In this document: positions 17,964 to 45,000 of the stretch, piece after piece
Layout of the letters: each line of letters starts with the position of its first letter
How positions within the stretch are numbered: position 1 is the first letter of the stretch
Source of the DNA: a virus
Taxonomy: Duplodnaviria > Caudoviricetes
Length of the DNA: 60,328 nt
Direction: 5' to 3' (one strand)
IMG/VR virus record: IMGVR_UViG_3300042399_000237
Span: 1 to 60,328 of that record
The notes under the pieces: generated by a model
Told to the model about the DNA's origin: nothing
What the model saw: only the letters and a program-made list of their open reading frames with translations
The model's database searches: none
Position numbers and translations under genes: made by a program

Positions 17964-18348
17964 GATTTATCTTCCTATTTTTTGACTGGTGGATAAAGTC
18001 TTTAACTTCGTCTGTAGACGGAGGGTCATACATTGGCATTTTCTGCTTTGCCAGTTCTAATAAATATTTATTTGTCCTTCTTAGCTTCTGTTGTCTGCGT
18101 AACCATTTTGCTGGGTCTTCTAGGAATCTTTTTATTCCATAAAGATGCCACAATAGATATCCTCTGACCGTCCCTATGTCCAAGAGGTCTTTTGGTTCTA
18201 GAGATATTTTTACCCACTTAGTAATACGCTGCCTTCTTTGGAATAAACATTTTATCTTCCTCATCTGAGGAGAGATGAATAAAGCCGCCTCGTCTAAATC
18301 TGAGCAATGCTTGGGTGGTTGAATCAACCAAGTCATCATGGTCCCCAT
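17953..18348 (-). CDS. Hypothetical protein between TerL and portal (start uncertain)
   Basis: The 3' part fills the 255-nt gap; the annotated start overlaps TerL by 131 nt and is probably too far upstream. Confidence 0.4.
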   Translation of the reverse strand: MGTMMTWLIQPPKHCSDLDEAALFISPQMRKIKCLFQRRQRITKWVKISLEPKDLLDIGTVRGYLLWHLYGIKRFLEDPAKWLRRQQKLRRTNKYLLELAKQKMPMYDPPSTDEVKDFIHQSKNRKINHGD

Positions 18349-20617
18349 TAGGAAAGGAAGCCACCTCCTCTACCAATTCATCTGCCCATCTTGTATCTGG
18401 TCGCCATACCATTCCTGATGCAAATAGATCTGACACTGCGTTTACACGCGCTATCTTATCTGACCCTTTCCCCGGTGTATATTCCGAAACAGGCAGACCT
18501 GCCTTTCTCAGCTCATATATTAACGGCGCACCCGCTGCTTTCTTCTCCACCAAGAGGGTGTCAGGGTTCCATTCCTTCCATAGATCATAGGCTGTACGCT
18601 TGAGTTCTGGGAACTCCATACGCTCTTTAAACGCATCAAGCACGATAATATTAGCTTGTTCAATTCCGTCTATTTCCCTATAGAAGACTCCCCATGTTGT
18701 ACATGCGGAATAATCTGCCCTGTTGGTTTTCTCGAATGCGGTATCCCAAGACTGGATAATGTAGTCAACCTCTGGGGGTTTCTCTCTATCCCAGATCTTC
18801 CACATCTCCCGCTTGATGATAGCCCCACCCTCTGAGGTGGGGTTCTGCTGGTACTGCGCTTCCCACTTAGCTACTGGGAGTTCTGCCTTGATAGCCTCTA
18901 GTTCTGTTTGCTTCCAGAACTCAGCCCACAAGGGCTTGCCGCTAGGAAGAAGAGCGGGTAGCTCTATAACCTCCCAGTCTTCCAAGTCTCTCTTGATGGC
19001 ATTGTTAAGGATCTGACCTGTTAAGTCTCTTTTGCTCCATCTAGTATTATGGCTAACAACCCCATTTGCAATGAAATTCTCAGTCCTATCTACCTCAACA
19101 TCAAAAACTTCTTCTTCTCCAGAAGGCGTTATGCTGGTTATCTTATCCAGAATGACGCTGTAGGTATTCAGCGGCTCGTTGTAATTTTTCTGGTGTTTTG
19201 CCATATCCAACGGCAAGGTTGCAGTCATTGCAGAGCAATCCTCTGACAACTCCGGTGGCATGGTTATGGTCGATACATAACTTCCCGTTCCAATGCGCCC
19301 TTGTATTTTTTGTAGAAGGCAGCTCCCCGCAGACATCGCACAGGTTGCCGCGCTCCGCAACCATGCGGTCATACTCCTCGCTGGTAATTCCGTACCTATG
19401 TTTAATACGCCGCGCTCTGCTTTTCTCTGGGGTTGGCTTTTCTGGAGGGTACTGCTTTGAATAGCAGTAACCACATAATCCTTTGGCTTTAGCAGGGTGG
19501 GAATTGCAGTGCCAGCAGTCTTTCCCTTTCCATTTCCCATGATGCCCGATTGGACGGTACGGGGCTTCCGGGTTTTTCTTATGGTAACTTCTTCTTGCTT
19601 GGCAAGCAGAGCAGAGTCCGGGTATTGTTTGAGATCTGGCGGTTCTGTTGCAGCCTTCGTTGCTACAAGCAACATATTCGGCTTTAGGTCTTTCAGTTGA
19701 ATCCATTTGCGCCCTCCAGAAAAATCAACAAGAAACGGATGCCTCGCGTTTGCTTGAAGTATTCTGCCAGATTGCGTCTTTACTGTATATATGGAATCAA
19801 TACCACTTGACTGCCAATTGTTTATCTTGGCTGTGGTAAGTACCCCATATTCATAGGTTGCCACCAAATCACCAATACAAATATCCCGTAATGGCTTTTC
19901 TGTCCCATCAGACATAAGCACACGGGTGCTTCCAACCATACACATAACTATAACAATGGCTCCTCCCGGCTGCAGACGCTGTCTAGGACCGGATGAATAC
20001 CACTCGAATACCCGATCATACACCTGCGGGGTTCCTTGCATCGCTTCCTGTTCTGAATGAGGGTCATCGATGATAAGGACATCTGCCCCTTTACCTGTTA
20101 CCGCACCCCCAACCCCAATAGCAAAATAATCCCCGCCTTTGTTTGTATTCCAGCGACCGGCTGCCTTGCTGTCCGACTGAAGCTTGGTCGAGAAGACTTC
20201 TTGATAATCAGCAGACCCTACCAAGTTTCTGACCTTCCGACCAAACCCTACGGCAAGTTCTGCGGTATGGGCTGTTTGGATAATCTTCTTTTCTGGGTAT
20301 AAGCCCAGAAACCAAGAAGGGAATAGAAAGGAAGCAAACTCTGACTTTGTATGACGAGGCGGCATGTTGATGATCAGCCGCTTAAGTTCTCCTCTTGCGA
20401 CTCTCTCAAAGGCATCTGCCATGATCTGATGATGCTTGCCGGGGATGAATGCTCCCCACATCTGACGGACAAAGGGCAGGAAGTTCTGCCTGCATCGTTC
20501 TTTCTTATCTGCCTTGAATAGCTGATCTATCTTCTCTATGTCCGGGGAACCAGCAGGCAGGGTATCAAGGATACTCAGGTAACCAGTGATCTCTTCTCTG
20601 GTCAGGAGGTCGCTCAT
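18218..20617 (-). CDS. terL: Terminase large subunit with intein
   Basis: Walker A-like INMPPRHTKS; Walker B LIIDDPH; nuclease motifs QSWDTA, EKKAAG, HDDLVDS; start set at MSDLL. Confidence 0.95.
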   Translation of the reverse strand: MSDLLTREEITGYLSILDTLPAGSPDIEKIDQLFKADKKERCRQNFLPFVRQMWGAFIPGKHHQIMADAFERVARGELKRLIINMPPRHTKSEFASFLFPSWFLGLYPEKKIIQTAHTAELAVGFGRKVRNLVGSADYQEVFSTKLQSDSKAAGRWNTNKGGDYFAIGVGGAVTGKGADVLIIDDPHSEQEAMQGTPQVYDRVFEWYSSGPRQRLQPGGAIVIVMCMVGSTRVLMSDGTEKPLRDICIGDLVATYEYGVLTTAKINNWQSSGIDSIYTVKTQSGRILQANARHPFLVDFSGGRKWIQLKDLKPNMLLVATKAATEPPDLKQYPDSALLAKQEEVTIRKTRKPRTVQSGIMGNGKGKTAGTAIPTLLKPKDYVVTAIQSSTLQKSQPQRKAERGVLNIGTELPARSMTAWLRSAATCAMSAGSCLLQKIQGRIGTGSYVSTITMPPELSEDCSAMTATLPLDMAKHQKNYNEPLNTYSVILDKITSITPSGEEEVFDVEVDRTENFIANGVVSHNTRWSKRDLTGQILNNAIKRDLEDWEVIELPALLPSGKPLWAEFWKQTELEAIKAELPVAKWEAQYQQNPTSEGGAIIKREMWKIWDREKPPEVDYIIQSWDTAFEKTNRADYSACTTWGVFYREIDGIEQANIIVLDAFKERMEFPELKRTAYDLWKEWNPDTLLVEKKAAGAPLIYELRKAGLPVSEYTPGKGSDKIARVNAVSDLFASGMVWRPDTRWADELVEEVASFPNGDHDDLVDSTTQALLRFRRGGFIHLSSDEEDKMFIPKKAAYY
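19046..19942 (-). mobile_element. Intein (299 aa) in TerL
   Basis: Begins CMVGSTRVLMSDG (block A); block B ANARHPFLV; block F VFDVEVDRTENFIANG; ends SHN followed by T(+1). Removal restores IVIVM-TRW. Confidence 0.95.
19143..19706 (-). CDS. Endonuclease VII-family homing endonuclease nested out of frame in the intein
   Basis: YGITSEEYDRMVAERGNLCDVC...LCIDHNHATGVVRGLLCNDCNLAVG; N-terminal Cys-rich repeats; own SD GGAGG 6 nt before the ATG. Confidence 0.9.
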   Translation of the reverse strand: MDSTERPKAEYVACSNEGCNRTARSQTIPGLCSACQARRSYHKKNPEAPYRPIGHHGKWKGKDCWHCNSHPAKAKGLCGYCYSKQYPPEKPTPEKSRARRIKHRYGITSEEYDRMVAERGNLCDVCGELPSTKNTRAHWNGKLCIDHNHATGVVRGLLCNDCNLAVGYGKTPEKLQRAAEYLQRHSG

Positions 20618-20630
20618 GTTCCACACTCTT

Positions 20631-20858
20631 TCATATCGACAACATCTCATCCAATGATGGGGCTATTCGGATTGTCCTGAACTTATGGGGCTTCATGTTA
20701 ATTCGCCCCTCTTGCTCTAGGATGTGGATATGTCTGTGGATATTTGACCTAGACTTCAGTCCCAGACCAGATGCGATATCCTGCAGGGATGGAGCAAAGC
20801 CCTTGGTCTTTATAAAGGACTGGACGAACTCTAGAATCTCTAGCTGCTTGTTTGTCAT
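20631..20858 (-). CDS. LexA-like DNA-binding domain protein (no peptidase domain)
   Basis: MTNKQLEILEFV...GFAPSLQDIASGLGLKSRSNIHRHIHILEQEGRI matches the LexA N-terminal winged helix; 75 aa only. Confidence 0.85.
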   Translation of the reverse strand: MTNKQLEILEFVQSFIKTKGFAPSLQDIASGLGLKSRSNIHRHIHILEQEGRINMKPHKFRTIRIAPSLDEMLSI

Positions 20859-23808: not shown

Positions 23809-23854
23809 AGGGTGTCACGTTATGCCCTTATGGGCATAGCGGGAAGTCCTTCCC
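23808..23854 (+). repeat. Intergenic hairpin element, copy 3
   Basis: GAGGGTGTCACGTTATGCCC-TTAT-GGGCATAGCGGGAAGTCCTTCCC. Confidence 0.9.
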
Positions 23855-23874
23855 AACTAATTTGGAGAGATGAC

Positions 23875-24438
23875 ATGCATAAGAACCGTGAAGACTGGCT
23901 GGATGCGGCTGTTTCAGAACTGCGCCCAGTGTTTGATTCTGTATCCTTTCCGCTGCCGGACAAAATCCGGGTGACGTGCGGCTTTCCATCTAGCAGGGCT
24001 AAGGCGAACAACGCTCGTATCGGTGAGCATTGGAGTCCAAGCGCCAGCAGTGACGGCAGTCACGAGATCCTGATCTCACCGACTGTCGATGATCAGGTCG
24101 ATGTATTTGCTGTGCTGGTACATGAACTGGCTCACGCAGCAACCGATGGTGATGGTCATGGCACTCGCTTCAGAACCTGTGTTAGAGCGCTTTGGCTTGA
24201 AGGCAAGCCGACTGCGACCGTTGCTGGGCAAGTGTTTCGCGAGAAGTTCGCCAATCTGCTCGATCAGATCGGTGCTTATCCTCATGCTCGTTTAAACGTG
24301 TCAGGTCGCAAGGTGCAGACAACCAGACTGCTGAAGGCTTGCTGCCCAAGCTGTGGATACACGATACGCATCACCAAGACATGGGCTGATCAGGGTCTGC
24401 CGATCTGTCCAAATGACCGTAGCACATTTGTAATCTAA
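23875..24438 (+). CDS. SprT-like zinc metalloprotease with C-terminal Zn ribbon
   Basis: VLVHELAHA...GHGTRF; CPSCGYTIR...PICP; start set at MHKNR. Confidence 0.8.
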   Translation: MHKNREDWLDAAVSELRPVFDSVSFPLPDKIRVTCGFPSSRAKANNARIGEHWSPSASSDGSHEILISPTVDDQVDVFAVLVHELAHAATDGDGHGTRFRTCVRALWLEGKPTATVAGQVFREKFANLLDQIGAYPHARLNVSGRKVQTTRLLKACCPSCGYTIRITKTWADQGLPICPNDRSTFVI

Positions 24439-24456
24439 CCTCGGAGGCTAATCAAA

Positions 24457-25896
24457 ATGAAAGACTTAAAAGCTAAACTAGCATTACTGTCACTGGGTCA
24501 ACTCAATGCAGCACAAGAGGAGGCTGGTGTTCTGCCAATTGCTGACAAGACAGGCGCACTGCACTCTGTGACTGAGTTGCTAGTGCATGGCAGGCTCGAA
24601 CTCGATCAGGTGCTGAAGATCAGGGCATCCGTAGCCAAACCCGTTGGGGCTGTTGTAGATGATGCTCTGCGCCAACAGGTGAACGCTATCAGTGCGACCG
24701 CTCAGGGTGCAGCTACTCAGGTCGAGTCGGCTCTTGCAGTGATAGGCAGAACGAGTGCGGATGTTGGCACGGCTCTTGCCCAGTTACGCACAGACTTTTC
24801 CAAGCTTTCGAGCAAGCTTGAGACCCGTGTCGCAGCAATCAGCAAGCCGGACGAGGCTCATATTCAAGCGTCCTTGGCGAACCTGTTTGATCAGTTCCGT
24901 ACTGAAGTGACCCCAGAGAAGCTGACTCAAGTGGCGAATGCCGTGGGGGCATTCAAGCTAACAAGGGCAGGCGATATCTTCCCGGTCACTGCTTACGGTG
25001 ACGTGGACTTCGGTGACCTTCTGGTAGGGGTCTGGGGCGATCCACAAGCCCCCCAGTTGGTCGATGACTATGTGTTCAACCCATCGCACCTACACCAGAG
25101 TCTAATCGCTCTGGACGATGTCCTCCCAGACAATGTCTGGTTGGCTGGTGAGCGTGGTACTGGCAAGACTGAGTTCGTGACCCAGTTAGCGGCTCGTTTA
25201 AAGCGGAGGCTTTTCCGGGTCAATTTTGACGAGGCTTTGGAACGTGCCGACTTCATTGGCGGTAACACGATTGAGAACTCTTCTGTGGTATGGAAGGCGG
25301 GGATAATAACCCAAGCCATTCAGCATCCCGGCAGCATCATCTTGCTAGATGAGATCGGGTTTGCGAGAGCGCAGTCGGTGTCGATTCTGCACAGTCTATG
25401 TGAGCGCAGTCCTCATCGTGCCATTGCCATTGCAGAGACAGGCGAAAGGATTCCAGTCGCAAGCCATGTAGTGTTCTTCGGTGCTGATAACAGTAACGGA
25501 CACGGCGATACGTCTGGCAATTTTGCTGGGGTGCGTGAACAGAATAGCGCCTTCCTTGACCGCTTCAGCTTCACTCTGCGCTTCGAGTACCTGTCTGCGG
25601 CTGATGAATGTAATTTAATTATCAACCGTACGGCTCTGCCTTTGGATGCCGCGATTGCCATCGTCCAGTTTGCGGGTGTAGCGCGTGAGAAAGCAAGGGC
25701 AGGGCTGTTGACTCAGCCTCCGTCACTGCGCCAACTATTTGCATGGGCAAGGGCTGTTAAGAAGGGCTTGCCTGTTGAGCAGGCTTTCGTGAACGCCATC
25801 ATCAACAAGTTTCCGGCTGACTGCGAGCCTGAGTTGCGTGGGGTATTCAATGCTCAGATCGATATCGTAGCGTTTAAACAATCACTGGGAGGTTAA
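24457..25896 (+). CDS. MoxR/CobS-like AAA+ ATPase
   Basis: Walker A GERGTGKT; Walker B ILLDE; NSAFLDRF; SLRQL sensor. Confidence 0.9.
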   Translation: MKDLKAKLALLSLGQLNAAQEEAGVLPIADKTGALHSVTELLVHGRLELDQVLKIRASVAKPVGAVVDDALRQQVNAISATAQGAATQVESALAVIGRTSADVGTALAQLRTDFSKLSSKLETRVAAISKPDEAHIQASLANLFDQFRTEVTPEKLTQVANAVGAFKLTRAGDIFPVTAYGDVDFGDLLVGVWGDPQAPQLVDDYVFNPSHLHQSLIALDDVLPDNVWLAGERGTGKTEFVTQLAARLKRRLFRVNFDEALERADFIGGNTIENSSVVWKAGIITQAIQHPGSIILLDEIGFARAQSVSILHSLCERSPHRAIAIAETGERIPVASHVVFFGADNSNGHGDTSGNFAGVREQNSAFLDRFSFTLRFEYLSAADECNLIINRTALPLDAAIAIVQFAGVAREKARAGLLTQPPSLRQLFAWARAVKKGLPVEQAFVNAIINKFPADCEPELRGVFNAQIDIVAFKQSLGG

Positions 25897-25898
25897 TC

Positions 25899-26864
25899 AT
25901 GTTGGCACTTGATGCGAAAAGAGGGTTGGAGGCTACACTCGAACGGGTGTTAAGCGCCTCCGGTCAGACTGGTTGGACGTTGGACATCGTATGGACTGGG
26001 AAGACTGCTGGTGTTCGGTTCGATGGCAGAAAAGCGCATATCATTCTGCCTGCGGTTGACGAGACCAAGGACGTACCAGTTGTGCTGTTCAACGACCTGT
26101 TGGGCTATGTGCTGCATGAACTGGGGCATATCTGGTTCACCCAGAACGAACCTTGGGACTTGGCACGGGCGAAGCATGGCGCATATGTCGGTAACCTGAT
26201 CAATGGGCTTGAAGATCCTAGGATCGAATTGCGAGTGATCAAGTCAGGCTACGCACCTAATAGCCGCGCCCTGTTTGAGTCGCTGGTCAACAACGTGCTG
26301 GAAGATGGCTACGTCGAGCCGGACGATTTTAAGAACATCCCGTTCCAACTGGCTATCGAAGGGCGGCGTTTAAACGGCTACAACATTGACGCTCCTGCTA
26401 TCCTCGATGAGTCTCGTTACGCTGCCGATCTACGCTGGGCGCTGACTGCTGCAAAGAAGGCTAAGAACACGGAGAAGATTGCGAAGATTGCAATTGAACT
26501 GTATCGCAGGCTGAAGAAGACGCAGGCAGAGAAGCCGCCCGAAGACAAGCCAGAACCCAAGGGCAAGCCAGAGGGCAAGCCAGAGTCTGGTGAGGGCGAA
26601 GGCGAGGACGAGGGCAAGGGAGAGGACGAGGGCAACGGGCAAGACGAAAGCGAGGGGCAAGACGAGGGCGAAGGCGAGGGGCAGGGGCAGGGCAAGGGCG
26701 AAGATGACCCTCACCCAGATGGCGAGAGCGAAGAGATTGGTCGGGGCATTGAGCCTGACGAGAAGATCTCCAGTCGCTTCACCCCTCTGACCGCTTTGGC
26801 TGACGAGCTTCAACCAAGACCCAGCATCGGCAAGCCCACAAGGGAATCACTGCGTTTCTACTAG
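25899..26864 (+). CDS. CobT-like N-terminal domain (HExxH) plus acidic linker
   Basis: LHELGHIWFT, INGLEDPRIE; long G/E/D linker. Confidence 0.8.
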   Translation: MLALDAKRGLEATLERVLSASGQTGWTLDIVWTGKTAGVRFDGRKAHIILPAVDETKDVPVVLFNDLLGYVLHELGHIWFTQNEPWDLARAKHGAYVGNLINGLEDPRIELRVIKSGYAPNSRALFESLVNNVLEDGYVEPDDFKNIPFQLAIEGRRLNGYNIDAPAILDESRYAADLRWALTAAKKAKNTEKIAKIAIELYRRLKKTQAEKPPEDKPEPKGKPEGKPESGEGEGEDEGKGEDEGNGQDESEGQDEGEGEGQGQGKGEDDPHPDGESEEIGRGIEPDEKISSRFTPLTALADELQPRPSIGKPTRESLRFY

Positions 26865-26873
26865 GAGAATAAA

Positions 26874-27686
26874 ATGGAACTGCACAAAGAACAATGCGAT
26901 TACACATACAGCGAAGTGCTGGCGCACAAGCCTAGCGGACTGGGAGTTACCTCAAACAATTTGAGGAAGTTGCTCAAGTCGTTAGACTTTGTGGGCTGGT
27001 CGAGCCGGGAAGAGTCAGGCAGGCTTGATCGTAGAGCGCTGACGAGGTTTGCGGCTGGTAGCAGCAACATCTTCTCTCGCAGGGAGTTGGTCGAGGCTGA
27101 GACCAGCGCGATATCGATCTTGATCGATTGCTCTGGATCGATGAATGATCGGCACGGCGAGGGCAAGAGGAGGGTCACCCGCATCGCTACGGCGCAGGCT
27201 GTCGCAATACACCTGTCGAAGGTGCTACAGCAAGCCCGTGTACCGTTCGCAGTGACAGGCTTTAGGGGTTCGCTACCTACAATCCTTGAGGGCGGCACTG
27301 TTGTTGAGACCCCGCATCTGATCGACTTCAAGCCGTGGGGCGTGTCACCACAACGTGCGACAACGGCGCTGGGCGGCATCAACCAGTGCGCCAGCAGTTG
27401 CACCCCTGACTACTCGGCTATCGCTGTACAGCTTGAGGATTTGCATCGCAGACCGGAAGGAAGGAAGATTCTATTCTTGCTGACCGATGCACAAGGGTAT
27501 GTTAAGGATCACCTGATCCATCTACAGAAGCTGGCAGACAAGCTGGGGATCGTGATCATCGCTATCGGGATCGCAACGGACGAGGTCACCAAGGTGTTTG
27601 TGAATGCAACATGCGTGAGAGATGTATCGCAGTTGGCAGAGAAGTCGTTTAATGCCCTGCTCACGACTGTACGCAAGAAGCTGTGA
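26874..27686 (+). CDS. CobT-like VWA domain protein
   Basis: SGRLDRRAL...IFSRR...ILIDCSGSM (MIDAS)...TPD...RKILFLLTD; AGGAG RBS. Confidence 0.85.
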   Translation: MELHKEQCDYTYSEVLAHKPSGLGVTSNNLRKLLKSLDFVGWSSREESGRLDRRALTRFAAGSSNIFSRRELVEAETSAISILIDCSGSMNDRHGEGKRRVTRIATAQAVAIHLSKVLQQARVPFAVTGFRGSLPTILEGGTVVETPHLIDFKPWGVSPQRATTALGGINQCASSCTPDYSAIAVQLEDLHRRPEGRKILFLLTDAQGYVKDHLIHLQKLADKLGIVIIAIGIATDEVTKVFVNATCVRDVSQLAEKSFNALLTTVRKKL

Positions 27687-30126: not shown

Positions 30127-31821
30127 TCAGAAGTCATCCAGAGGCTGTGTATAAGTCCCGGTTGTCTTGTTGTACTGAAGCAGGGCTTCGCCTTGCGTAC
30201 CCACCCACCTGTATCGGCACTTCCAGACCACCACCTCTACGCTTGTACCCTCACCCCTGTGGACAGTTACGCCGCAGTCAGCTTTCGCCCACCATGCCAT
30301 TGACCCTGAGATGCTCATGCCGTCAGGTCTTGGGAGTTCTGCTCCCGACCTTGACACCTTGGCTGGGTGAGCAACGAACCAGACATGCACCCCGTAGGTC
30401 TTGGCAAAGGCTTGTACCCTTGTCAGAAGATCGCTGATAGCGGCTGTTTCGGATAGCTGAGTGCCGCTCATGTCGATGTAGTTATAGGGGTCGATGACCA
30501 TGCCCCTGATCCCCATCCTTGCCACCGCTGCTATGCCACGCTCAAGGATCGAGTCTATGGTCGCAGGCTCTACAGTCTCTGAGTCCATGATAAGGAAATG
30601 TTCTAGCACCCATGCGAACGCTTCATCCTTCTCTGCCTCATTCATCCTTAAACTACCCTCAAAGAACCGCTTATTGGCATAGATCTCCATTAACCGGGAG
30701 ATATGTACCTCTGGCTGGTTCTCGAACGAGCATAGGGCAAACTTCCAGTCATGCTTGCGAGCGAGGTTGACCATGAGTTGGTCTACAAAGTTCGACTTGC
30801 CATGACTAGGATACCCAGTCACGACTGACAGTTGACCGGGGGAGATGGTGTAGATCTGGTCTAGATTTGAATACCCAGTAGACACTCCCTGCCCCGTTCC
30901 TTTTGTCCACAGATCGTTTACACGGTCTTCAAACTTGGCAGCAGATGATAGCCCTTCTACTGGATACGGCTCTGCCTCTTCTATGATTCGCTTAACTTCA
31001 TCTGCCCCTGCTTTCTGGAATGCTTCGTTGAAGTCCTTGTAGTCCGACACTGCCAGCCTGCACTTGTGCTTGCCGATACGTCTTGCCAACTCTTCAGCCA
31101 GCGCCTGCCCAGCGGAGTCATTGTCTGTTGCAATGACGATGTATGGAGCTTGTTTCAGCACCTCGAATCCATTCCAGACAAAGGCAAACTTCTTGTCCTC
31201 ACTCGCTTGCACCTTGCCGTCAGCCACCTTGATAGGTGCGCCAGCCGGTACGGAGATGACGTTCTCTATCCCGCACTCCATCCCAGTCAAGGCATCCATC
31301 TCTCCCTCAACAATAATCACAGGCAGAGCGGGATTGATCCGGTCAATCCCAAAGAAGTCATGCGCCCCACCGGAATCTTGGGTGAAGTCCTTGTCCTCGA
31401 TGCTCCGGTACTTGGCTGAGGTCATCGCCCCGTTACGGAAATACGGGAATCCAATGGCAGGTGACATCTTGTTTAAACGGCTGAACCATTTCTCAGAAGA
31501 GAATAGTCCCGCCTTGTTTGCTGTCTCTTTTGAAATGCCGCGTGTCTCTAGGTAATCGTAATGGGCTTGATCAAGAGGCTCTTTTTTTATATTGGGAACG
31601 GCTGACAATTTTCTCTCCACATGTGGGGTTGTGCTATCGAATGGGACATTGCCGCTTATGCCACAGTGATGGCATAGATAGAGCCAAGCATCGCCCGTGC
31701 GGGTGATGACCAGTTCTTTGGCATTGAATTTCTTACGGGTTGGGGAACAACTAGGACAAGCTGCGCGATCTGTATCTGCCACATGCATAGCAGATACGAA
31801 CGCATGAAGTTCGTTACTCAT
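30127..31821 (-). CDS. T7 gp4/Twinkle-like primase-helicase
   Basis: Zn finger CPSC...CHHC; TOPRIM IVEGEMDAL, ATDND..G; helicase GYPSHGKS, VIDPYN, VAHP.K. Confidence 0.92.
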   Translation of the reverse strand: MSNELHAFVSAMHVADTDRAACPSCSPTRKKFNAKELVITRTGDAWLYLCHHCGISGNVPFDSTTPHVERKLSAVPNIKKEPLDQAHYDYLETRGISKETANKAGLFSSEKWFSRLNKMSPAIGFPYFRNGAMTSAKYRSIEDKDFTQDSGGAHDFFGIDRINPALPVIIVEGEMDALTGMECGIENVISVPAGAPIKVADGKVQASEDKKFAFVWNGFEVLKQAPYIVIATDNDSAGQALAEELARRIGKHKCRLAVSDYKDFNEAFQKAGADEVKRIIEEAEPYPVEGLSSAAKFEDRVNDLWTKGTGQGVSTGYSNLDQIYTISPGQLSVVTGYPSHGKSNFVDQLMVNLARKHDWKFALCSFENQPEVHISRLMEIYANKRFFEGSLRMNEAEKDEAFAWVLEHFLIMDSETVEPATIDSILERGIAAVARMGIRGMVIDPYNYIDMSGTQLSETAAISDLLTRVQAFAKTYGVHVWFVAHPAKVSRSGAELPRPDGMSISGSMAWWAKADCGVTVHRGEGTSVEVVVWKCRYRWVGTQGEALLQYNKTTGTYTQPLDDF

Positions 31822-31841
31822 TTGGATAGCCTCCGGTTAAA

Positions 31842-32066
31842 TTACTTGTTATCGCCTTTGTTTTTCGATCTGTCTCTCAGTCTAAGGTTGCCTGCTGTTG
31901 TTAACCCACCCTTGCGGATGGGCTTGATGTGATCGATATCCTTACCTGACCTATCGATCTTCTTCTTGTCGAACAGCCGTCTTGCTTTCTGTCGTTCAAG
32001 AAAACCTTCTACATCCCCTCGCTTCTTTTGAAGGGCGTATTCATGTTTGTAATCTCTGACTCTCAC
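31842..32066 (-). CDS. Small HNH-like protein
   Basis: RDYKHEY...GKDIDHIKPIRKGG....NLRL....N. Confidence 0.8.
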   Translation of the reverse strand: MRVRDYKHEYALQKKRGDVEGFLERQKARRLFDKKKIDRSGKDIDHIKPIRKGGLTTAGNLRLRDRSKNKGDNK

Positions 32067-32129
32067 GGGTAAAGCCCTCTTGACTGATAAGTTAAGACTT
32101 AGGGACTGATAAGTAACGTCCAGTAAGTA

Positions 32130-32335
32130 AGTCTGCCCTTTTGGTGGGCAGACCTAGCCTCAACCTGTCAGAAGAGACTGTCTGCCTTCACAGCTTGCCC
32201 TAATGGAGCCTGCTGACCCGCCAGCCTTTTCATTCATGGGTGCTGGCTTCGCCGCCCATTCTCCTGTTTCAGAACTAACCCGTGGTAGGAGTAACTGCAT
32301 TCTGCGCCCACCGTTTCCCGTCACGCAGAAGATGA
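32130..32335 (-). ncRNA. Candidate structured RNA upstream of HNH/primase-helicase
   Basis: Multiple stems (TTCTGCG/CGCAGAA, CTCCT/AGGAG, GCCAGC/GCTGGC, GTCTGCCC/GGGCAGAC); upstream TAGAAT -10; no convincing ORF. Confidence 0.5.
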
Positions 32336-32399
32336 ATTCTATTCTTAATTACGAACAAAGCAAACTTATTTTGCGGGATCTACATATTGGTATACAAGG

Positions 32400-32429
32400 T
32401 TGACAAATATCTATGGGCTGTACTAGAAT
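32400..32429 (+). promoter_or_regulatory. Sigma70 promoter for the candidate sRNA
   Basis: TTGACA-N18-TAGAAT. Confidence 0.65.
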
Positions 32430-32434
32430 ACGAA

Positions 32435-32515
32435 CAACCAATCCAGATTAGCCTCCGGTTGCGGCACATCCCTCCAGATGGGTAAAGGACTCTCACAAGG
32501 AGTCCTTTATTTTTT
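32435..32515 (+). ncRNA. Candidate anti-Shine-Dalgarno sRNA
   Basis: Lies between a promoter and a terminator; contains GATTAGCCTCCGGTT and CCCTCCAGA. Confidence 0.55.
32483..32515 (+). terminator. Rho-independent terminator
   Basis: TAAAGGACTC-TCACAAG-GAGTCCTTTA followed by TTTTTT. Confidence 0.8.
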
Positions 32516-32861
32516 CCACCCTTATCTCGCAACGCGGATTGATCTTATCCAGACCCCAGTAGATGTGTTTCTCCCTGACCTGACGGTCATTGGTATAGGC
32601 TACGTCCTGTAACAGGTCGAGTATTAAACTCTCATCCAGATCAGGTCTGCGGCTGGCATAGTAGATAGTGATATGCACAGCGACACTCCCCTCCAATAAC
32701 TTCCTCCTAACGCATTGCTGTTTAAACATCTTGGCATACCCGAGCGCCTTCTTGGACTTGATGACCGCCGGTCTGCCGCCTATTGATACTAGCTGTCTAC
32801 TGTTAGACTTGCTGGCTGGCTCACCATAAATTGTTAACGATAATGCTTGCATGTCTTCCAT
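32493..32861 (-). CDS. rusA: RusA-like Holliday junction resolvase
   Basis: GEPASKSNSR...RRPDLD...ILDLLQ..AY.NDRQV...NPRCEIRV. Confidence 0.85.
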   Translation of the reverse strand: MEDMQALSLTIYGEPASKSNSRQLVSIGGRPAVIKSKKALGYAKMFKQQCVRRKLLEGSVAVHITIYYASRRPDLDESLILDLLQDVAYTNDRQVREKHIYWGLDKINPRCEIRVEKIKDSL

Positions 32862-32875
32862 GATAGTGTTATTGT
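32847..32875 (+). promoter_or_regulatory. Putative promoter of the recombination operon
   Basis: TTGCAT-N17-TATTGT with a TGn extended -10. Confidence 0.5.
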
Positions 32876-32900
32876 CCCATTTCCATACGGAGGCTAATTA

Positions 32901-33809
32901 ATGAAGATTACCAATATACATAATGTTCCCGCTACCCTTGTTGCTCTGGCATCCAGAGATTACTACAGTAAGGGCGCATCTGACTATAGTGTCACAGAAA
33001 TAATATCCCCTCCCCGTATCCAGCGGTTACGCAAGAAGCACTATGAAGACATGGAGACTGACGTAGCAGACATGCTATGGAACCTCATGGGTTCTGCCCT
33101 TCATGTTGTTGCTGAACGTGGTCAGGCTGAGAACTGCATCACTGAAGAGCGGCTAATGGCTGAGGTAGATGGAGTCAAACTCTCAGGGGCTATAGACATA
33201 CAACAGATAACTCCCGAAGGGATCATCATCACTGACTACAAGTTCACCTCTGCTTGGTCACTACGTCAGGACAAGTTCGAGTGGGATGCCCAGCAAAACA
33301 TCTATGCATGGCTCGTTGAGACGGTCAAGAAGGAGCGCGTGGTCGGAGTACAGGTCTGTGCATTGATTAGGGACTGGAGTCGCAGGGAGGCTCAGAGAAA
33401 CCCTGCCTACCCCCAAGCGCCTATACAGGTAGTTAATCTGCCCTTGTGGTCGCTGGAGAAGACCTACGAATATTTGAGAGAGAGGATAGATCTGCACCGT
33501 CAGTCCAAGGTATTGGATGACTTTGGTGATGCTCTGCCTCTTTGTACCCAATCTGAACGCTGGGAGAAGCAGACCCAGTATGCAGTAAGAAGGGAAGGCA
33601 GAAAGACCGCCATCCGTGTTTTAGATAGTGAAGACGAAGCAAAAGTATTAGCTAACAAGGAGAAAGGTTATGTCGAAGTCAGGAACGGAGAATCAATCAG
33701 ATGTACCGGAAATTACTGTGGGGTTGCTAAGTGGTGTGAGCAATATCGTGACAAAGATGCTGCAAGTGATGGAGGAGGTGACTTACGTTCAGAAGGACAA
33801 GACGAATGA
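32901..33809 (+). CDS. PD-(D/E)XK Cas4-like exonuclease
   Basis: GSALH...LSGAID...ITDYKFT...QQNIY; C-terminal C...C..YC....C cluster. Confidence 0.85.
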   Translation: MKITNIHNVPATLVALASRDYYSKGASDYSVTEIISPPRIQRLRKKHYEDMETDVADMLWNLMGSALHVVAERGQAENCITEERLMAEVDGVKLSGAIDIQQITPEGIIITDYKFTSAWSLRQDKFEWDAQQNIYAWLVETVKKERVVGVQVCALIRDWSRREAQRNPAYPQAPIQVVNLPLWSLEKTYEYLRERIDLHRQSKVLDDFGDALPLCTQSERWEKQTQYAVRREGRKTAIRVLDSEDEAKVLANKEKGYVEVRNGESIRCTGNYCGVAKWCEQYRDKDAASDGGGDLRSEGQDE

Positions 33810-34440
33810 CTTCCAGCATTACAACTATGCATCTGAGGCAGCGGCTATTAAGAAAATACGCCCAGCGCTTATCAAGGCTGGACTGTTCATGCTGCCGTCA
33901 GTAGAAAAGATGTGGCTGGATGACAGAGGCAACACCCATGTAGAGATGCTGTATCGGATATTCGATATCAGCGGTGACTACATCCAGTTCAAGGCGGTTG
34001 GATCTGGTCAGGACAAGAGCGGAGACAAGGGTGTCTACAAGGCTTTAACAGGGGCAAGCAAGTACGCCCTGCTGAAGACCTTCATGCTGGAGACTGGGGA
34101 TGACCCAGAGGTTCCTCGTGAAGATGAAAAGAAAGAAGAAAAGAAGCAGCCGTTAAAAGCAGTACCGAAAGAAGCAGTAAAGACCACCAAGATTCAGCCA
34201 GTAGTTGAAGTAGCCAAGGTTGAGGACGAGCCTGCCCAGCGTTTAAACTTTGAGCTATTTAGTCAGAAGATGATTGAGTGGGCTGAGACTTGCGTGACGG
34301 CAGATGAGATGTTCGATCTATGGAAGGCTAATCAGGTGACCGTCGATGCAGTTAAGGCTTTTGATCTTGTTAACCTGTATCAACCACTGCAAGCCAAATT
34401 TGCGGAAATTAAAGCAATTAAACTAAAAGGAGACATGTAA
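33736..34440 (+). CDS. ERF-family ssDNA-annealing protein
   Basis: VQKDKTNDFQHYNYAS...GSGQD.SGDKGVYKALTGASKYALLKTF..ETGDDPE; start uncertain (GTG at 33736). Confidence 0.85.
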   Translation: MSNIVTKMLQVMEEVTYVQKDKTNDFQHYNYASEAAAIKKIRPALIKAGLFMLPSVEKMWLDDRGNTHVEMLYRIFDISGDYIQFKAVGSGQDKSGDKGVYKALTGASKYALLKTFMLETGDDPEVPREDEKKEEKKQPLKAVPKEAVKTTKIQPVVEVAKVEDEPAQRLNFELFSQKMIEWAETCVTADEMFDLWKANQVTVDAVKAFDLVNLYQPLQAKFAEIKAIKLKGDM

Positions 34441-38950: not shown

Positions 38951-39074
38951 GAAAGAAGACATGCTGCCGAAGTACGGATTCACCGGACGGAGAATAGGAT
39001 CTCAGTGCGCGGAATGTAAGAAAAAAGAAGAGGCAAGAAGGAAGCAGGAGCGGCTTAGTCGAGCGCCTTCTTAA
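38913..39074 (+). CDS. Small Zn-finger protein (53 aa)
   Basis: MLKFCMRCQK...QCAECKKK; overlaps the stop of the convergent giant gene. Confidence 0.55.
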   Translation: MLKFCMRCQKMFEKEDMLPKYGFTGRRIGSQCAECKKKEEARRKQERLSRAPS

Positions 39075-42000
39075 CGAATTGTATATTCTTCGTTACGTTT
39101 ATTTCTGCGTCTTTAATATTAGACTCTATCTCAGCAAGATTGTCTGGGTCCATCTTAGACCGTCTTGCTTCTCTTCTGAAGGTTCTTAGGCTACTCATCT
39201 CTTCATTTAAACCATTCATGTAGTCCTTGATCCCCAGCAGCTTGCCGCCTCTGCCAGCTTGGAATACAGCAAGCTCATCGTAGTCACCCTGTCTCTCTAG
39301 GAAGTTAACAGTCTTCACCGCAGTATCCACTTCCTTCTTCAGTTCGTAGTAGGCGTTGATTGTTCCTGAACCCTGCTTGGTGGTCATGAAGCGTTTAAAC
39401 ACAGGCATCTGCTCTAGCTTCTTGGTCGCCTTAACGTCATCACCCTCGCCACGCATGGCGGCATCTAGCATCATGACTGCGTATGTTCCAATTGTTCCAG
39501 TGTATCCGCGAATCAGGTTATCTATTTTCAGAGGAGACTGATTTGTTTCTTTGCCTACCAACTGAGCCAGCAGGGATGTGCTTGGGTTAGCTTGGTAAGG
39601 CGTGTAAACATCCTCCATGCCCTTCCCGACAATCGGCTGACCTGTAAAGAACGAGTAGTTAGCTATGTTCTCAACGATAGGCATAGCAACATGAGGGATT
39701 GGATTCATTACCAGCGTAGAGCTTAGGTTCCTAGCGATGGACTGTCTTAGGTCTGCCCCTGTATCCATACCCCAGACATGTTGATAGATGCGCTCAGGGA
39801 ACACTTTAAACAACACACCCAATTCAAATGGGATTGGTATTCTTCCTAAGCCGCCCAGTATCCAGTAGTTATCTCTCTCTTCTGGGGTGGCATTCTTGTA
39901 TTCTTCTGTGTCTGCGGCTAAGGCAAGATACATGGCTGTTAAGCCAAGTATCGTTAGGGATCTAGTCGCAAACAGTTTCTTCTGTTGTTCGTTGTTGCGG
40001 GTGGCTGACCGACCAAAGCCCGTCCGGTACAGAACATCCATACCCTGTATACGAGCGTTCATGAATGGCACAAGAGCCGTTACGATTCTAATGAGGGCTG
40101 AGTTACCCTTGCGGCTGAAGTTCATGATCTCTAGCGCTTGATAGGTTGCCTCTGCCTCGTTTCCCGTCTCCTCCAGAACCCTCTTGTAGACCTCTGAGCG
40201 AGTCGCTAGGTCGGAGATGTGCGCTCCCTTGTCCAGAATATCCATTATCTTAGAGATGGGCATGAGAGCCTTCTCTGCGGCTGTCTGAGTACCTGTACGC
40301 TTACGGAGTTCTTTCTCTACAGCAGCGGCTGAAGACTTGGTGTCCCCTGCGAAGTCATATCCTGTGAAGTACCCAGATCTAGCCAAAGCTGCAGCTTCTG
40401 GGTTAGACCCAAGCATAGCTTTCCCTGCCTGTTTAAATGTATCAAACAGCGGAGTCATGTTTACACCGGACGTTACCCAAGCTTGCATCGAGTCTCTAGC
40501 CAAGTTAGCCAGCATGAAGCCGGGGTCTTTGGTCACCATGTCTCTCAGGAAGTTGGCTGGCTTTGCTAATATTTCAACAAAGGGTAGATGAGGAGCATCT
40601 AGACCTTTGAGGGCTTCATAGACCAGACTGTCGTCCACCTTGTAGAACTTGGTAACGCCTGCTTGTTTAATAGATACGATGTCGTATCCCTTGGTTGCAG
40701 GTGGGACTTCAGAGGCTTGGTTTAAACGCTGCAGATCTCTGATGGTACGTTGTCCTGCTACGTTCTTCATACCAGCCTCAATAGCCGCACGAGAATTCCG
40801 TATCACTGTTTCCATGAAGTCGGCTAATGGAGCCTCCCCACCCTTCAACTCTTTGGGTTTCTTAACGCCTGAGATAGAGCTGAATATAGCTGGAGCGTTT
40901 ATACGGTCTCCATCCATCTGGCGATAGAAGGGAATGTAGTCCCAGTTCTTCGTCCAGAGTTCTGCTTCTTTAGCGGAGATAACTCCAGTGTCCTTCATGA
41001 ACTGGACCAGACCATTGTTGTACTGCTGGTACTCAGCGAAGACTTGTTTAAACTCTGGGTGCATCTTCTCCAGAATCTTGCCGCGTTCTATGTCTTCCTT
41101 GGTGAAGTTCTGTTCACGGGTTGAGGTGATGGTCTTGCCATCTTTCCCTACCCTTGTTTCATACATGAGCCTGCTGCCTCGGCGTGTGCCAGCATAGAAC
41201 TGGAACCGCTGGAACATGTGTGCGCCGCCTTTCATTATCGGCTCTAGGATTGGGATCAAGCCCCTGACAGTGCTGTTCTCAGGAACTGAAGCGAACCCAT
41301 TCTTATATACAGGTGGACCGTTAACAAAGGAGGAGGCAGCTATGCCTGCGGCTCGGTCAGCAAATACAACTGCTGCTATCGCAGAGCGATCAGCATGGTA
41401 TTCCTGTTCTCCAAACTGAAGAGCGGACTCTCTGGTGAGATTAGAAATGGAGTCAGCGCCATGAATGAATGCCTGTCTAAACGCAGTGAAGGATCTTGGA
41501 GAGAATGCCGCTGCTATCCTGTCAGACCAGCCTTCATTCTTTCTGGCGGTAGTGGTGCGGTTAATAGCCGCAGTCATGTCTGGGCTTAGGTCGGCATTAG
41601 CCTCATCGAATCTGCCTTGTGGTTTTGTTTGGGCAGAGGTGGCTCTAATGGAATACTTGACATCATCATTGCTGCGAGAGAATGCCCCGGTATTTCCTAC
41701 AGCAGACTTAACTTGGTTAGGGCTGTATACAGCGAGGTTCTTATTGCCACCCTCCGCTACATAATACGAATCAAACCCAGCGCCTTTGATAGCCTTCTGT
41801 ATATCTGGGTTTTCTAGGGTATCCCAAGCCCCCTTTTTAAGCGCACCTAAATATTGCGCTTGCATACTTCTTGCTACTGGTCCATCTTGATTGGTATATC
41901 TTTTAGATATTATCGGCTTGAGAATTTCAATGTGAGCAGGGTTTTCGTAATCGAAGGTTTTCTCAGCCCTTACATATAAGGGCATGATGTTCTCGCCAGA

Positions 42001-45000
42001 ATTGAGCCTGTCTAGGACAAATTCTTTTGTAGCTTCATTAAGCTTATCTTCCAGACTCGATCCGGCGCGATGACTGTCTCTTATCTTTTGAAGGATAACT
42101 TTAAGATCTGCTTGATGCTCTGAGCTTAACAGTTCATCTGAATGCTCAGATATCGAGTCAGCCGATAGAGCAGAAAAATGTGCCGCAAAATCAGGGTCGG
42201 GCGATAAGAAGATTGAATTAGCCTGCTTGGGTTTAAACGTGCCTATGTCACGAGCCGTGCCGTGATACCAGAACTTCGGAGACCCAATGATTTCATCATC
42301 GCTAACTCCCCGATACATCCAGTCGGGGACAACGAAATCGTCATGGTTTACTTGCTTGGAGTCACCGAACCATTGTTTAAACTCTGGGGTTTTTGTTTGG
42401 CGGAGAGAGAACCTTGGCTCTTTGCCTTCGGACCTAACCGCTTCTCTGGCAGAAGACTTGAAGGATTCACGGACATCGTCCAGCCTTCTGAGTATATTGG
42501 ATCGTCCGGCTTCGCTAGTTTGAAGCCCTTTGATAAGATCTTCTCCAGCAGGCTGCTCTGTCCAGTCATGATATGGGTACTCCGATTCTGCGCCAAACAC
42601 TGAAGTGTCTTCTAGTTCGGCAATCTCGTTAATCTTAGTTTCAAACCGCTTTGCAATATCTGCAAACTCTTCAGCAGACTCAACAAATGCATCTGATCCA
42701 GTGTAGTTTATCAGAACCAATTCATTGGCACGGGTCTTTGTATATCCAGCCAATGGACCAAGCTCTTCTTGAAGAGCTTTAAACATCTTTCTTTCTTGCG
42801 TCAGGGTTAGCTCTTTGCGTTTAAATCTAAACCGATATCCTAGCTGCGCTTTGTCAGCCAGAGCTGGGTCTGCTCGGAAGAATGGAACTGCATCTTGTTT
42901 AAATGCATAGGTCATTGCTTGCGACAAGTCCATTGCATCTTGCTTGGCTATCACTGGGTCATCATGATGAACATGAACAATTAGATTAGGGGTGATGCCT
43001 CCAGCATATCCTCCGCTCCCAACTGATACCCTAACCTTGCTTTTAAGGTTAAGCGCCCGAGCCATTCCTTGAATAGCGCCTGAGTCTAGAATGATCTTGT
43101 TTAAATCTTCTTTAGCCTTCAGCTTTAATTCTGCGACCTGTCCCATCTCAGAAGATACGGATGGTATGACTTCTCCGGTTATGACATGAGTCTCTGCTCT
43201 AGTTTCTGCGGATGGTTTCTGTAGCTTTGTTGTTACAGGTAGAGGTGTTGTGCGCTTACCCAGTAGATGAGAGTAATCTACGATTGCCATCTCCATTGCG
43301 TACTCACGCAACTGAGCATCACTCAGAGCCTTCTTGTAACCCTTCGCACGATAACGCTCAAATATTGTCTTAGCCTTTTGTGTTATCCAAGAGGCAGCTT
43401 GAACTTGTCTAGCTGGCAGATTTCGTTTGCTTGCAACCAACCTAACCAAGTTCTCAGCCAATTCATACTGAGCGTCTGTAGGGGTGTCGCGGTCAAACAG
43501 CATCCGTGTCATGTGGAGGTCAATGGTAGAGCGACCGCTGTCCTTCCCTTCCATTGCATCCATGAAGTTCGAGTAGAAGGTATTTGTCTTACGACCATCC
43601 CAGTCAATACCAAAATTCAGTAGATCGCTAACAGCTTTATTCTCTCTTCCTGTGCCAACCTTAATCTCAGCGCCACGGGCAAACTGCTCCCATGCTTTAG
43701 ATGCTTTGGTGAAGTTAGCAGCAACCTCTGTATTGGCTGAGGTGATTGAAATGATTTGGAAGAACTTCTCAGCAAGAACCTTGTCTCCATTGAAGGCATT
43801 CAAGATGGCTTTAGCCGAATCTTCGTACCATTCCTTTCCTTTAATTCCTTCGTTAGTGTATTGCTGTAACTTCTTAACAGCCGTTCTAACGTCCTCTAGA
43901 GTCTTTCCAGACTCCATCCCTGCAATCCTCTCGCCAACTCTCTTGACCAATCTCTCAAGCTCACTAGCGTAGATACGAGCTTGCTTCTCAGGCAGCGGTG
44001 GTCCTTCTCTCAGAGAGAACTTGCCTTGATCTTTAGCCTCGTCATAGAGAGTCTGCTCTGTACCCAGCCCTCCTGAAATTTTCATCTGACGTTCTTTGTC
44101 ATTGCCTGTGTATTCTTTAAGGGCTTTATTAAAGCGTCTAAACGCTCTTGCTGCCTCACCCTCAGAGCGCCCTTGACTCATCGACCTATCTTTATTAGCC
44201 TTTTCTTCTGCCGCTCTATGCTTTAAGAAAAGATCGGCAACCTTGGCTCCTTCTGGGGTCTTATTAAGCTCATTGTATGTCTCCCCTTTGGGAGCTTCTC
44301 TCAGAGAGAACGCGCCGTATTTAGGCTCCATAGAGGTTGGCTCTCTGGTGGCGGGTAAGCGACCAGCCTCCACCTTGCTAAAGATACTATCGGCTGTATG
44401 GAACCCAATCCCGTCAAGGCTGTTGCCTAACGCTTCCATGAAGGACTTGATCTTGTTAAACACAGCGCCGATAAGACCTGCTGGAGGCTTGGTCTGATCA
44501 AAGTCAGAGAATGCGTCAGCAATCGCTTCTTCGATCAATGCCTCTGGGCTGAGGTTTAAACCCTGATACCTTTCAATGATATTGTATTTGCTGATCCACT
44601 CAGACTTGGCTTTGTTCTCTAGGACCCTCCACTGGTCTTTAGAGAAAGCACCCAACTCTTTAAGGGCATGGACACCCTCATGCCTTAGAACCCTCATTGG
44701 TTTCTCGGCATCTATAGCAATCTTTATTAGCTTCTTGGAATACTCGCCGTCTGCCGTAGATTCGTTGCTCGCTCTGATTGCGTTAACGATGTTTAAATGC
44801 AGATCACCCAAGCCAAGGCGAGTCATCATCGGACGAAGCTTTCTGTCTAACTCTGCTGCCTGTTCTTTGAAGCGTCCAGTAAACATACCGGCACTTAACA
44901 ACCTTTCTTCTGCCTTTTTGTTACCGACCATATGAGGCTCGCGTATACCCTCTACAGAGCCGTATCTAGCCTTCAGCTCATCCTGAGCCATGACACTCAA

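Follow-up and report, generated by a model that had tools for sequence, protein, structure and literature searches.

A candidate phage small RNA whose loop co-varies with the ribosome-binding site of the primase-helicase gene

Introduction

Base-pairing small RNAs (sRNAs) block binding of the 30S subunit by forming a duplex over the Shine-Dalgarno (SD) sequence and the start codon of a messenger RNA (mRNA), and several described systems bear on the element considered here, a probable phage sRNA gene at 32436-32516 on the plus strand of a 60,328-bp IMG/VR virus record (IMGVR_UViG_3300042399_000237; completeness estimate 98%), the whole of which is referred to below as the window. The c4 RNA is processed from an operon transcript that it shares with its target, and it controls the icd/ant antirepressor for immunity in the temperate phages P1 and P7. 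According to a 2025 review, c4 is a phage RNA of ~77 nt whose loops pair around the ribosome-binding site (RBS) of a phage mRNA and block translation, and loop and target co-vary between P1 and P7 (PMC12197685). It is the nearest described system, being likewise phage-encoded, of similar size and marked by loop-to-RBS pairing with loop-target co-variation. However, the RNA of the window has a promoter of its own, on the strand opposite its target, and it would act on the primase-helicase gene and probably on several replication and recombination genes. A c4-type identity was rejected on these three grounds (promoter, strand and targets), and no Rfam family, c4 included, matches the RNA. The phage lifestyle differs as well, P1 and P7 being temperate and the 98%-complete genome of the window having no tyrosine integrase.

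The chromosomal C-rich-loop sRNAs of Firmicutes (RsaE/RoxS type) act in trans on host metabolism, placing C-rich hairpin loops on SD sequences through short seeds. The likeness lies in the trans pairing of a C-rich loop with several SDs; the RNA of the window differs in being phage-encoded, in using an 11-13-nt seed for a gene-specific extension of the SD, and in having no Rfam match. CopA and RNAI of plasmid copy control and the CI RNA of P4 are small constitutive RNAs that limit the initiator or primase of their own replicon in a dosage-dependent manner, and they are cis-encoded countertranscripts or act by transcription termination, whereas the present RNA is encoded ~0.6 kb away, would reach the SD in trans, and may have a dosage role. 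The T4 proteins RegA and RegB, which switch off a group of early mRNAs by recognising their start regions or SDs, are functional analogues, but they are proteins with an unrelated recognition mechanism.

Only a small number of sRNAs from non-temperate phages have been assigned a function. A 2016 paper names two T4 RNAs of unknown role as the sole examples from a virulent phage, and the review cited above counts 38 phage sRNAs without a described function (PMC12197685). PAK_P3 sRNA2 was considered as a precedent for action on an RBS and discarded, that role being contradicted by the published text. No published description of the present sRNA was found in the literature. Judging from its sequence, the sRNA family is real, widespread and previously undescribed. 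The proposed mechanism is standard in kind; what appears unusual is that a lytic-type phage would act on its own replication genes through a co-evolving extended SD. Sequence data alone yield a case open to testing, in which the RNA and its principal target, the primase-helicase start region, are defined and the results of reporter assays can be predicted from natural compensatory variants.

Relatives and their conserved layout

The locus is probably a phage sRNA gene whose loop-borne seed lowers the translation of replication and recombination genes in trans, most likely with the primase-helicase start region as the principal conserved target. Relatives were retrieved from IMG/VR with the RusA protein (18 loci) and with the primase (177 loci, 80 of which were kept). 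In the closest contigs, blastn gave near-identical copies of the sRNA (97.5-98.3% identity over 121 nt), and weak matches were obtained in contigs with a ~73% identical primase. The weakly matching relatives have a common layout in diverged sequence, namely a -35/-10 pair, a short leader, hairpins 1 and 2, and a terminator with a T-run; the loop word of hairpin 1 ends in GCCTCC, and the terminator ends right after the stop codon of rusA. A covariance model, R1, was trained on 19 relatives, the window being left out, with helices set by hand (74 positions, 19 pairs), and was searched at E < 0.01 against both strands of the window plus loci L003-L100 (696,955 bases). The window is recovered at 32437-32513 (+) (31.9 bits, E 2.6e-5), and the 61 matches of the model consist of the window and 60 locus matches in 55 distinct contigs, five contigs having been fetched twice. 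Every match lies on the strand opposite primase and rusA. A match is present in 53 of the 80 primase loci, the other 27 having a short upstream flank or the most distant primases.

The closest bacterial records with the primase come from two bins, one of an uncultured betaproteobacterium and one of a Burkholderiaceae metagenome-assembled genome (MAG), and the contig in the former gives a further R1 match outside this set (57 bits). A DNA search of GenBank phages returned no homologue of the sRNA stretch; it matched only the part that holds the Betaproteobacteria-1 RNA described below, in one uncultured record on which R1 was negative. In seven of 150 other sampled genomes from the order of the L101 MAG, R1 matched gene-end terminators, which were rejected as false positives because no seed, promoter, primase, rusA or exonuclease lies nearby, and no copy of the sRNA as a prophage element was found in the 150 genomes. 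A cmscan of 31700-33000 against Rfam 15, with E up to 10, gave nothing on the sRNA; its only matches, RF02932 and a weak one to Ocean-VII, lie at other positions and on the minus strand.

Co-variation of the seed with the primase-helicase start region

The first-pass annotation of the window had proposed a trans-acting sRNA that shuts off genes through a shared extended SD, and the relatives bear out the central part of this proposal, in that the seed and the primase-helicase RBS co-vary. At least 9 contiguous nucleotides of the seed are complementary to the start region of its own primase in 56 of 60 loci; the exceptions include L048 and L049 with 8 nt and L060 with 7 nt, or 10 pairs if one G-U is admitted. 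Over 46 unique pairs, the mean complement was 10.33 nt for own and 7.66 nt for swapped partners, with mean energies of -20.26 and -16.37 kcal/mol, respectively, and none of 10,000 permutations paired as well. The seed variants that change together with their targets are TTAGCC, TAAGCC, TGAGCC, TTGGCC and GCCCCC. The seed TTAGCCTCC is found with the primase RBS GGAGGCTAA, TAAGCCTCC with GGAGGCTTA, TGAGCCTCC with GGAGGCTCA, TTGGCCTCC with GGAGGCCAA, and, in seven loci, TTAAGCCCC with GGGGCTTAA.

Position by position, three pair types join the nucleotide 2 nt 5' of GCC to its target in 40 of 41 unique combinations (21.0 expected); the T/C position of the core is paired in all 41 (T-A 34, C-G 6, T-G 1), and the first position 3' of the core in 28 of 41 (18.7 expected). 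In a tree built from 52 primase proteins, four changes in the sRNA and five in the mRNA are required at the position 2 nt 5' of GCC but only five jointly, showing that at least four switches coincide. One coincident switch is a reversal nested in another clade (L061), and the core change represents one additional coincident switch. In many clades, the duplex spans from the SD to the first bases of the primase start codon. Outside the sRNA gene, the loci contain 78 exact complements of their own 9-nt seeds; 72 of these stand at start regions of open reading frames (ORFs) of at least 50 aa, six before ORFs of 17-44 aa, and none elsewhere. For the primase, the marks of a trans-acting sRNA are therefore found together, i.e., a conserved accessible seed, a target encoded elsewhere and co-variation between the two, whereas the same combination is weak for the exonuclease.

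The exonuclease is better described as a variable, weakly conserved candidate target. Its match is strong in the window (11 nt), in L029 and in L052, and in L029 the rare variant GGCCAA appears in both the primase and the exonuclease RBS.

In the clade with the GCCCCC seed (L037, L045, L049 and L054; at ~900-1800 on the minus strand of these loci), GGGGGGCTTATG stands 5' of a 29-aa ORF. This word is the exact complement of the seed of that clade, and the 29-aa ORF is a possible extra target specific to it.

Matches of the seed within the window

In the window itself, the perfect complements noted in the first reading at 24442-24453 (+), 31827-31838 (-) and 32888-32898 (+) were recovered, each just 5' of a start codon, of the ATPase, the primase-helicase and the exonuclease, respectively. 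A 15-mer search that allowed up to 3 mismatches gave 7 matches against 1.38 expected, and none of 100 shuffles reached 7. When the 148 SD-bearing candidate starts (ORFs of at least 50 aa) were ranked by contiguous pairs, primase, ATPase and exonuclease came first to third with 13, 13 and 12, one G-U in each; most of the 148 have 7 or fewer, and only 3-5 reach at least 11. For comparison, random 36-nt windows gave a duplex energy of -11.2 +/- 3.7 kcal/mol; the values for the individual start regions are listed in Table 1.

These figures bear on whether the sRNA mainly hits host mRNAs, or is a general SD decoy for host shut-off, with the phage matches as a by-product of CCUCC. The C-rich core would pair with any strong SD, and several clades have a second C-rich loop in stem-loop 2. 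However, the flanks outside the core co-vary specifically with the phage primase RBS, and such long pairing is confined to the few SD-bearing starts just mentioned, which makes a host-directed role rather improbable. It is very unlikely that the 11-15-nt word acts instead at the DNA level, for example as an operator or origin iteron recognised by a co-evolving phage DNA-binding protein. The copies do form direct repeats on the coding strand of each gene and lie in the replication module beside a structured RNA, but each non-self copy holds an SD at a fixed short distance 5' of a start codon, the intergenic copy is flanked by a conserved promoter and a terminator and forms part of the loop of a covarying hairpin, and G-U pairs are tolerated (in L060 and at the ORF at 25899), which is a signature of recognition at the RNA level.

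A second anti-SD had been claimed for the loop of stem-loop 2, directed at an endonuclease gene nested in an intein. The match itself is real, TCTGGAGGG lying 5 nt before the ATG of the Endonuclease_7 ORF; however, it is marginal (3 matches where 0.77 are expected; 4 of 100 shuffles also reach 3). The loop is variable in sequence, reading AGTA or GAAA in many relatives and C-rich in other clades, so that a second anti-SD is not a feature of the family. The proposal of a trans-acting sRNA on a shared extended SD thus stands for the primase on the strength of co-variation, while conservation is weak for the exonuclease and absent for the target of the second loop. The intein (Intein_splicing) is held by the large terminase (18218-20650, -), and the 187-aa Endonuclease_7 ORF is nested in it in another frame (19143-19706, -) with an SD of its own.

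Two other duplex searches were set aside. When a 34-nt segment of the sRNA was compared with the whole window by energy only, long imperfect duplexes outranked the RBS matches and the scan gave no useful information, and a long-range duplex between the sRNA and the leader from Betaproteobacteria-1 to primase gave an unrealistic structure, the longest exact complement being 12 nt at the primase RBS.

Structure of the RNA

A folding energy of -22.4 kcal/mol (z = -2.13) was obtained for the 81-nt RNA, a stability reached by 7 of 200 shuffles. Folded with a few leader bases, the RNA forms three hairpins, with GATTAGCCTCC in the loop of CAACC/GGTTG. The earlier placement of GATTAGCCTCCGGTT largely in this loop agrees with the fold, in which the seed lies mostly between CAACC (32435-39) and GGTTG (32457-61). 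When 42 copies were folded individually, ~30 had the seed enclosed by a hairpin, as judged by reading, and the stem sequences varied from clade to clade.

Pairs were counted in a clean alignment of 47 model matches, which correspond to 45 distinct rows. Standard pairs fill 92.2% of the paired cells against 73.2% in shuffles, none of 500 shuffles being as high, and both sides have changed at 17 of the 19 pairs. The covariation score is 0.480 against 0.162 for the control, and sliding the partner by 1-3 columns leaves at most 49.8% of the cells paired. As in trans-acting sRNAs, a conserved structure with compensatory changes is found. G-U and U-G pairs number 32 against 12 for A-C and C-A, and a T-run stands 3' of the hairpin on the plus strand of the window only; based on the G-U excess and the T-run, the RNA was assigned to the plus strand.

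Promoter, terminator and open reading frames

The predicted promoter, TTGACA-N18-TAGAAT at 32400-32429 (+), is present as described in the first reading, with 11 of the 12 hexamer positions identical to the sigma-70 consensus, and it is the sole promoter-like site within 31500-33200. A promoter with at least 9 of 12 positions is found at the fixed distance in 45 of 49 distinct copies, compared with 129 of 5000 random positions (2.6%), and this check is independent, since the covariance model excludes the promoter region. The distance from the end of the -10 hexamer to the seed core is 18-25 nt in nearly all relatives and 34-35 nt in one clade.

The terminator is likewise present and folds, with the hairpin AAAGGACTC/GAGTCCTTT at 32484-32508 followed by an A and by T6 at 32510-32515; the U-tail and an A-rich linker, GGUAAAG, 5' of the terminator are the only features visible in the sRNA that bear on dependence on an RNA chaperone such as Hfq. 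A simple terminator scanner did not call the terminator, which may be due to a G-T extension of the stem that consumes the T-run. A promoter and a Rho-independent terminator of its own thus bound a short transcript unit, as in the trans-acting sRNA class, and their conservation, together with the excess of G-U over A-C pairs, lends indirect support to plus-strand transcription.

A CGAAC/GAACGTT word, often as the palindrome GAACGTTC, stands just 5' of or within the sRNA promoter in 40 of 49 distinct copies, compared with 892 of 3000 random windows of 100 nt. TACGAACAA occurs twice in the window, at 32350-32358 and at 32429-32437. These occurrences hint at a candidate operator for a regulator of divergent promoters.

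The statement that the transcript holds no ORF was nearly right: there is no conserved minus-strand peptide, but two short ORFs overlap it, at 32387-32485 (+, 32 aa) and at 32349-32441 (-, 30 aa). The latter raises the question of whether the motif is simply the RBS of a translated minus-strand ORF, possibly a toxin, with the promoter and terminator being incidental or belonging to an antitoxin RNA. On that strand, the TTG that opens the 30-aa ORF stands 10 nt 3' of GGAGGCTAATC. However, no start codon lies 3-14 nt after the core in 17 of 46 distinct copies, an ORF of at least 30 aa is found in only 5 of 46, and the peptides are unrelated (in a few rows the scan used the GCCTCC of the terminator instead of the seed, which leaves the conclusion unchanged). 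In addition, the hairpins covary as RNA, with G-U in excess of A-C on the plus strand. This explanation is therefore extremely unlikely, and a type I toxin-antitoxin system was rejected for want of a conserved small toxin ORF.

The position of the terminator brings in a different explanation, in which the RNA acts in cis, by transcriptional interference or by duplex formation with and cleavage of rusA read-through RNA, and the RBS-like loop is secondary. The terminator overlaps the rusA stop codon (32493-32495), the convergent arrangement is common to the relatives, the hairpin has no following T-run on the rusA strand, so that read-through is plausible, and the sRNA would be fully complementary to any rusA transcript that continues toward the Betaproteobacteria-1 RNA and primase. 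Cis-antisense RNAs of the P22 sar or lambda OOP type overlap their target gene on the opposite strand; here, the only overlap between the sRNA and rusA is that of the terminator with the last rusA codons, and overlap along the full sRNA would need a read-through rusA transcript. Action in cis leaves unexplained both the tracking of the primase RBS by the loop and the restriction of seed complements to start regions, and it is compatible with trans action. As the explanation of the locus it is considered unlikely, although the RNA may affect rusA read-through in cis in addition to acting in trans.

Proposed mode of action

According to the proposed trans mechanism, the sigma-70 RNA polymerase of the host would initiate at the near-consensus promoter and stop at the intrinsic terminator, giving an RNA of ~80 nt with a three-hairpin fold, in which loop 1 would present the extended anti-SD seed GAUUAGCCUCCGG. 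The primase-helicase mRNA, which is encoded on the opposite strand ~0.6 kb from the sRNA gene, would be bound by the seed in trans at its SD and spacer and, in many relatives, also at its start codon. In this phage, the seed would also pair with the start regions of the exonuclease and the AAA+ ATPase, and probably with that of the ORF at 25899. The pairing of an SD with the CCUCC core of 16S ribosomal RNA comprises 5-6 bp. The sRNA duplex of 11-13 bp is far longer and would therefore exclude the 30S subunit and lower translation. Based on this pairing with SD and start codon, the effect of the sRNA is most likely translational repression of the primase-helicase and of the other matching genes. 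Both the repressive sign and the timing are inferred; a temporal shut-off is conceivable, and so is a brake on replication that depends on gene dosage, provided that more genome copies yield more sRNA.

Several points weigh against this explanation. All relatives are metagenomic contigs, and the best primase match among GenBank phages is 32.2% identical, with no cultured phage. A seed that contains CCUCC matches many SDs by default, the primase start codons were picked by a heuristic, and the primase tree was made by FastTree only. The relatives share ancestry, and the permutation counts are not to be taken as probabilities. The seed of L052 matches its own primase start region over only 6 nt and its exonuclease start region over 11 nt, and co-variation with the exonuclease is weak (own 8.05 nt against 7.49 nt for swapped partners, with 42 of 10,000 permutations as high). 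On the structural side, the alignment used for the pair counts was fitted to the model and thus favours the structure, stem-loop 1 is the weakest helix with 76.8% of cells paired, and MAFFT followed by RNAalifold on 42 sequences gave no predicted pairs, which was ascribed to misalignment of stems of variable length.

Tentatively, the arrangement may be read as a private translational address, in which a subset of replication and recombination genes would carry clade-specific extended SDs (GGAGGC followed by TAA, TTA or TCA, GGAGGCCAA or GGGGCTTAA), and one sRNA would compete with the 30S subunit for those genes and form a copy-number-scaled brake on the primase-helicase. In such a system, the sRNA would imitate the anti-SD of the ribosome but read the extension of the SD. 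The sRNA promoter looks constitutive for the host polymerase, and with a strong promoter of this appearance and a position in the replication module, the level of the sRNA would scale with genome copy number. Address and reader would drift together, which could insulate related co-infecting phages from one another. If the dosage-brake or the address interpretation is true, lytic phages would use plasmid-like RNA copy control.

Features of the locus and neighbouring genes

Table 1. Positions of the sRNA gene, its putative targets and the surrounding features in the window
Feature	Position	Strand	Remarks
-35 hexamer TTGACA	32400..32405	+	retained in most relatives
-10 hexamer TAGAAT	32424..32429	+	spacer 18
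Predicted sRNA, ~81 nt	32436..32516	+	5' end inferred from -10, 3' end from T-run
Stem-loop 1, CAACC/GGTTG stem, seed in loop	32435..32461	+	6/6 modelled pairs changed on both sides
Seed GATTAGCCTCCGG, extended anti-SD	32446..32458	+	core GCC(T/C)CC invariant or nearly so
Stem-loop 2, CATC-CCTCCA-GATG	32467..32480	+	4/4 pairs changed on both sides
Stem-loop 3, terminator hairpin and T6	32481..32515	+	7/9 pairs changed on both sides; 99.8% of cells paired
Primase-helicase start region AACCGGAGGCTATCC, most likely principal target	31824..31838	-	ATG at 31821; 13 pairs including 1 G-U; -24.6 kcal/mol
ATPase start region CGGAGGCTAATC, candidate target	24439..24453	+	ATG at 24457; -24.5 kcal/mol; match known from the window only
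Exonuclease start region CGGAGGCTAAT, candidate target	32885..32899	+	ATG at 32901; -23.8 kcal/mol
321-aa ORF (25899) start region GGAGGTTAA, possible fourth target	25888..25896	+	11 pairs including 1 G-U; -20.7 kcal/mol
Endonuclease_7 ORF RBS TCTGGAGGG, weak candidate target of stem-loop 2	19712..19720	-	-19.6 kcal/mol with the stem-loop 2 region
AAA_5/CbbQ ATPase	24457..25896	+	
Primase-helicase	30127..31821	-	Toprim and DnaB_C
74-aa ORF directly 5' of primase	31842..32066	-	no Pfam match
Betaproteobacteria-1 RNA (Rfam RF02932)	32216..32332	-	82.4 bits; gathering score 49.4
rusA	32493..32861	-	Pfam RusA; convergent with the sRNA gene
PD-(D/E)XK exonuclease	32901..33809	+	
ERF recombinase	33670..34440	+	

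The gap of 670 nt between rusA and primase holds the sRNA gene and a full-length Betaproteobacteria-1 RNA (Table 1). The 5' end of the latter lies 68 nt from the -35 hexamer of the sRNA promoter, and the two elements diverge and do not overlap. They have the intergenic region and the phage group in common, but Betaproteobacteria-1 is a separate element on the opposite strand with an unrelated structure. It is present in 15 of 20 related loci (L008, L024-L026, L029, L035, L037, L038, L040, L044, L046, L049, L050, L052 and L069), where it occupies the interval from the sRNA gene to primase, on the strand of the latter, and it may be the 5' leader of an operon of the small ORF and primase. An orphan Rfam motif is thereby placed in a phage replication module beside a putative sRNA regulator; the name Betaproteobacteria-1 is absent from the main text of the paper to which the motif is attributed.

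The small ORF itself (74 aa) looks HNH-like by eye (DIDHIKP...GG...NLRL...N), and its Pfam search was empty; in relatives, an ORF ending in ...AAGAAGTAA likewise terminates just 5' of the primase RBS. The start codons of rusA and the exonuclease are divergent and 39 bp apart (32862-32900), with no obvious SD for rusA, and a TACGAAC...TAATAC word is found within this gap in relatives.

In the rest of the window, terminase, portal and other virion genes were found, and no tyrosine integrase was found in this 98%-complete genome. A block at 23812-27686 (+) encodes a SprT-like protein (weak match), the AAA_5/CbbQ ATPase, the 321-aa protein and a CobT/VWA-like protein, and it resembles a MoxR-VWA pair inside a phage; two genes of the block have an RBS that matches the sRNA. 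On the minus strand, 39055-47253 is a single ORF of 2732 aa.

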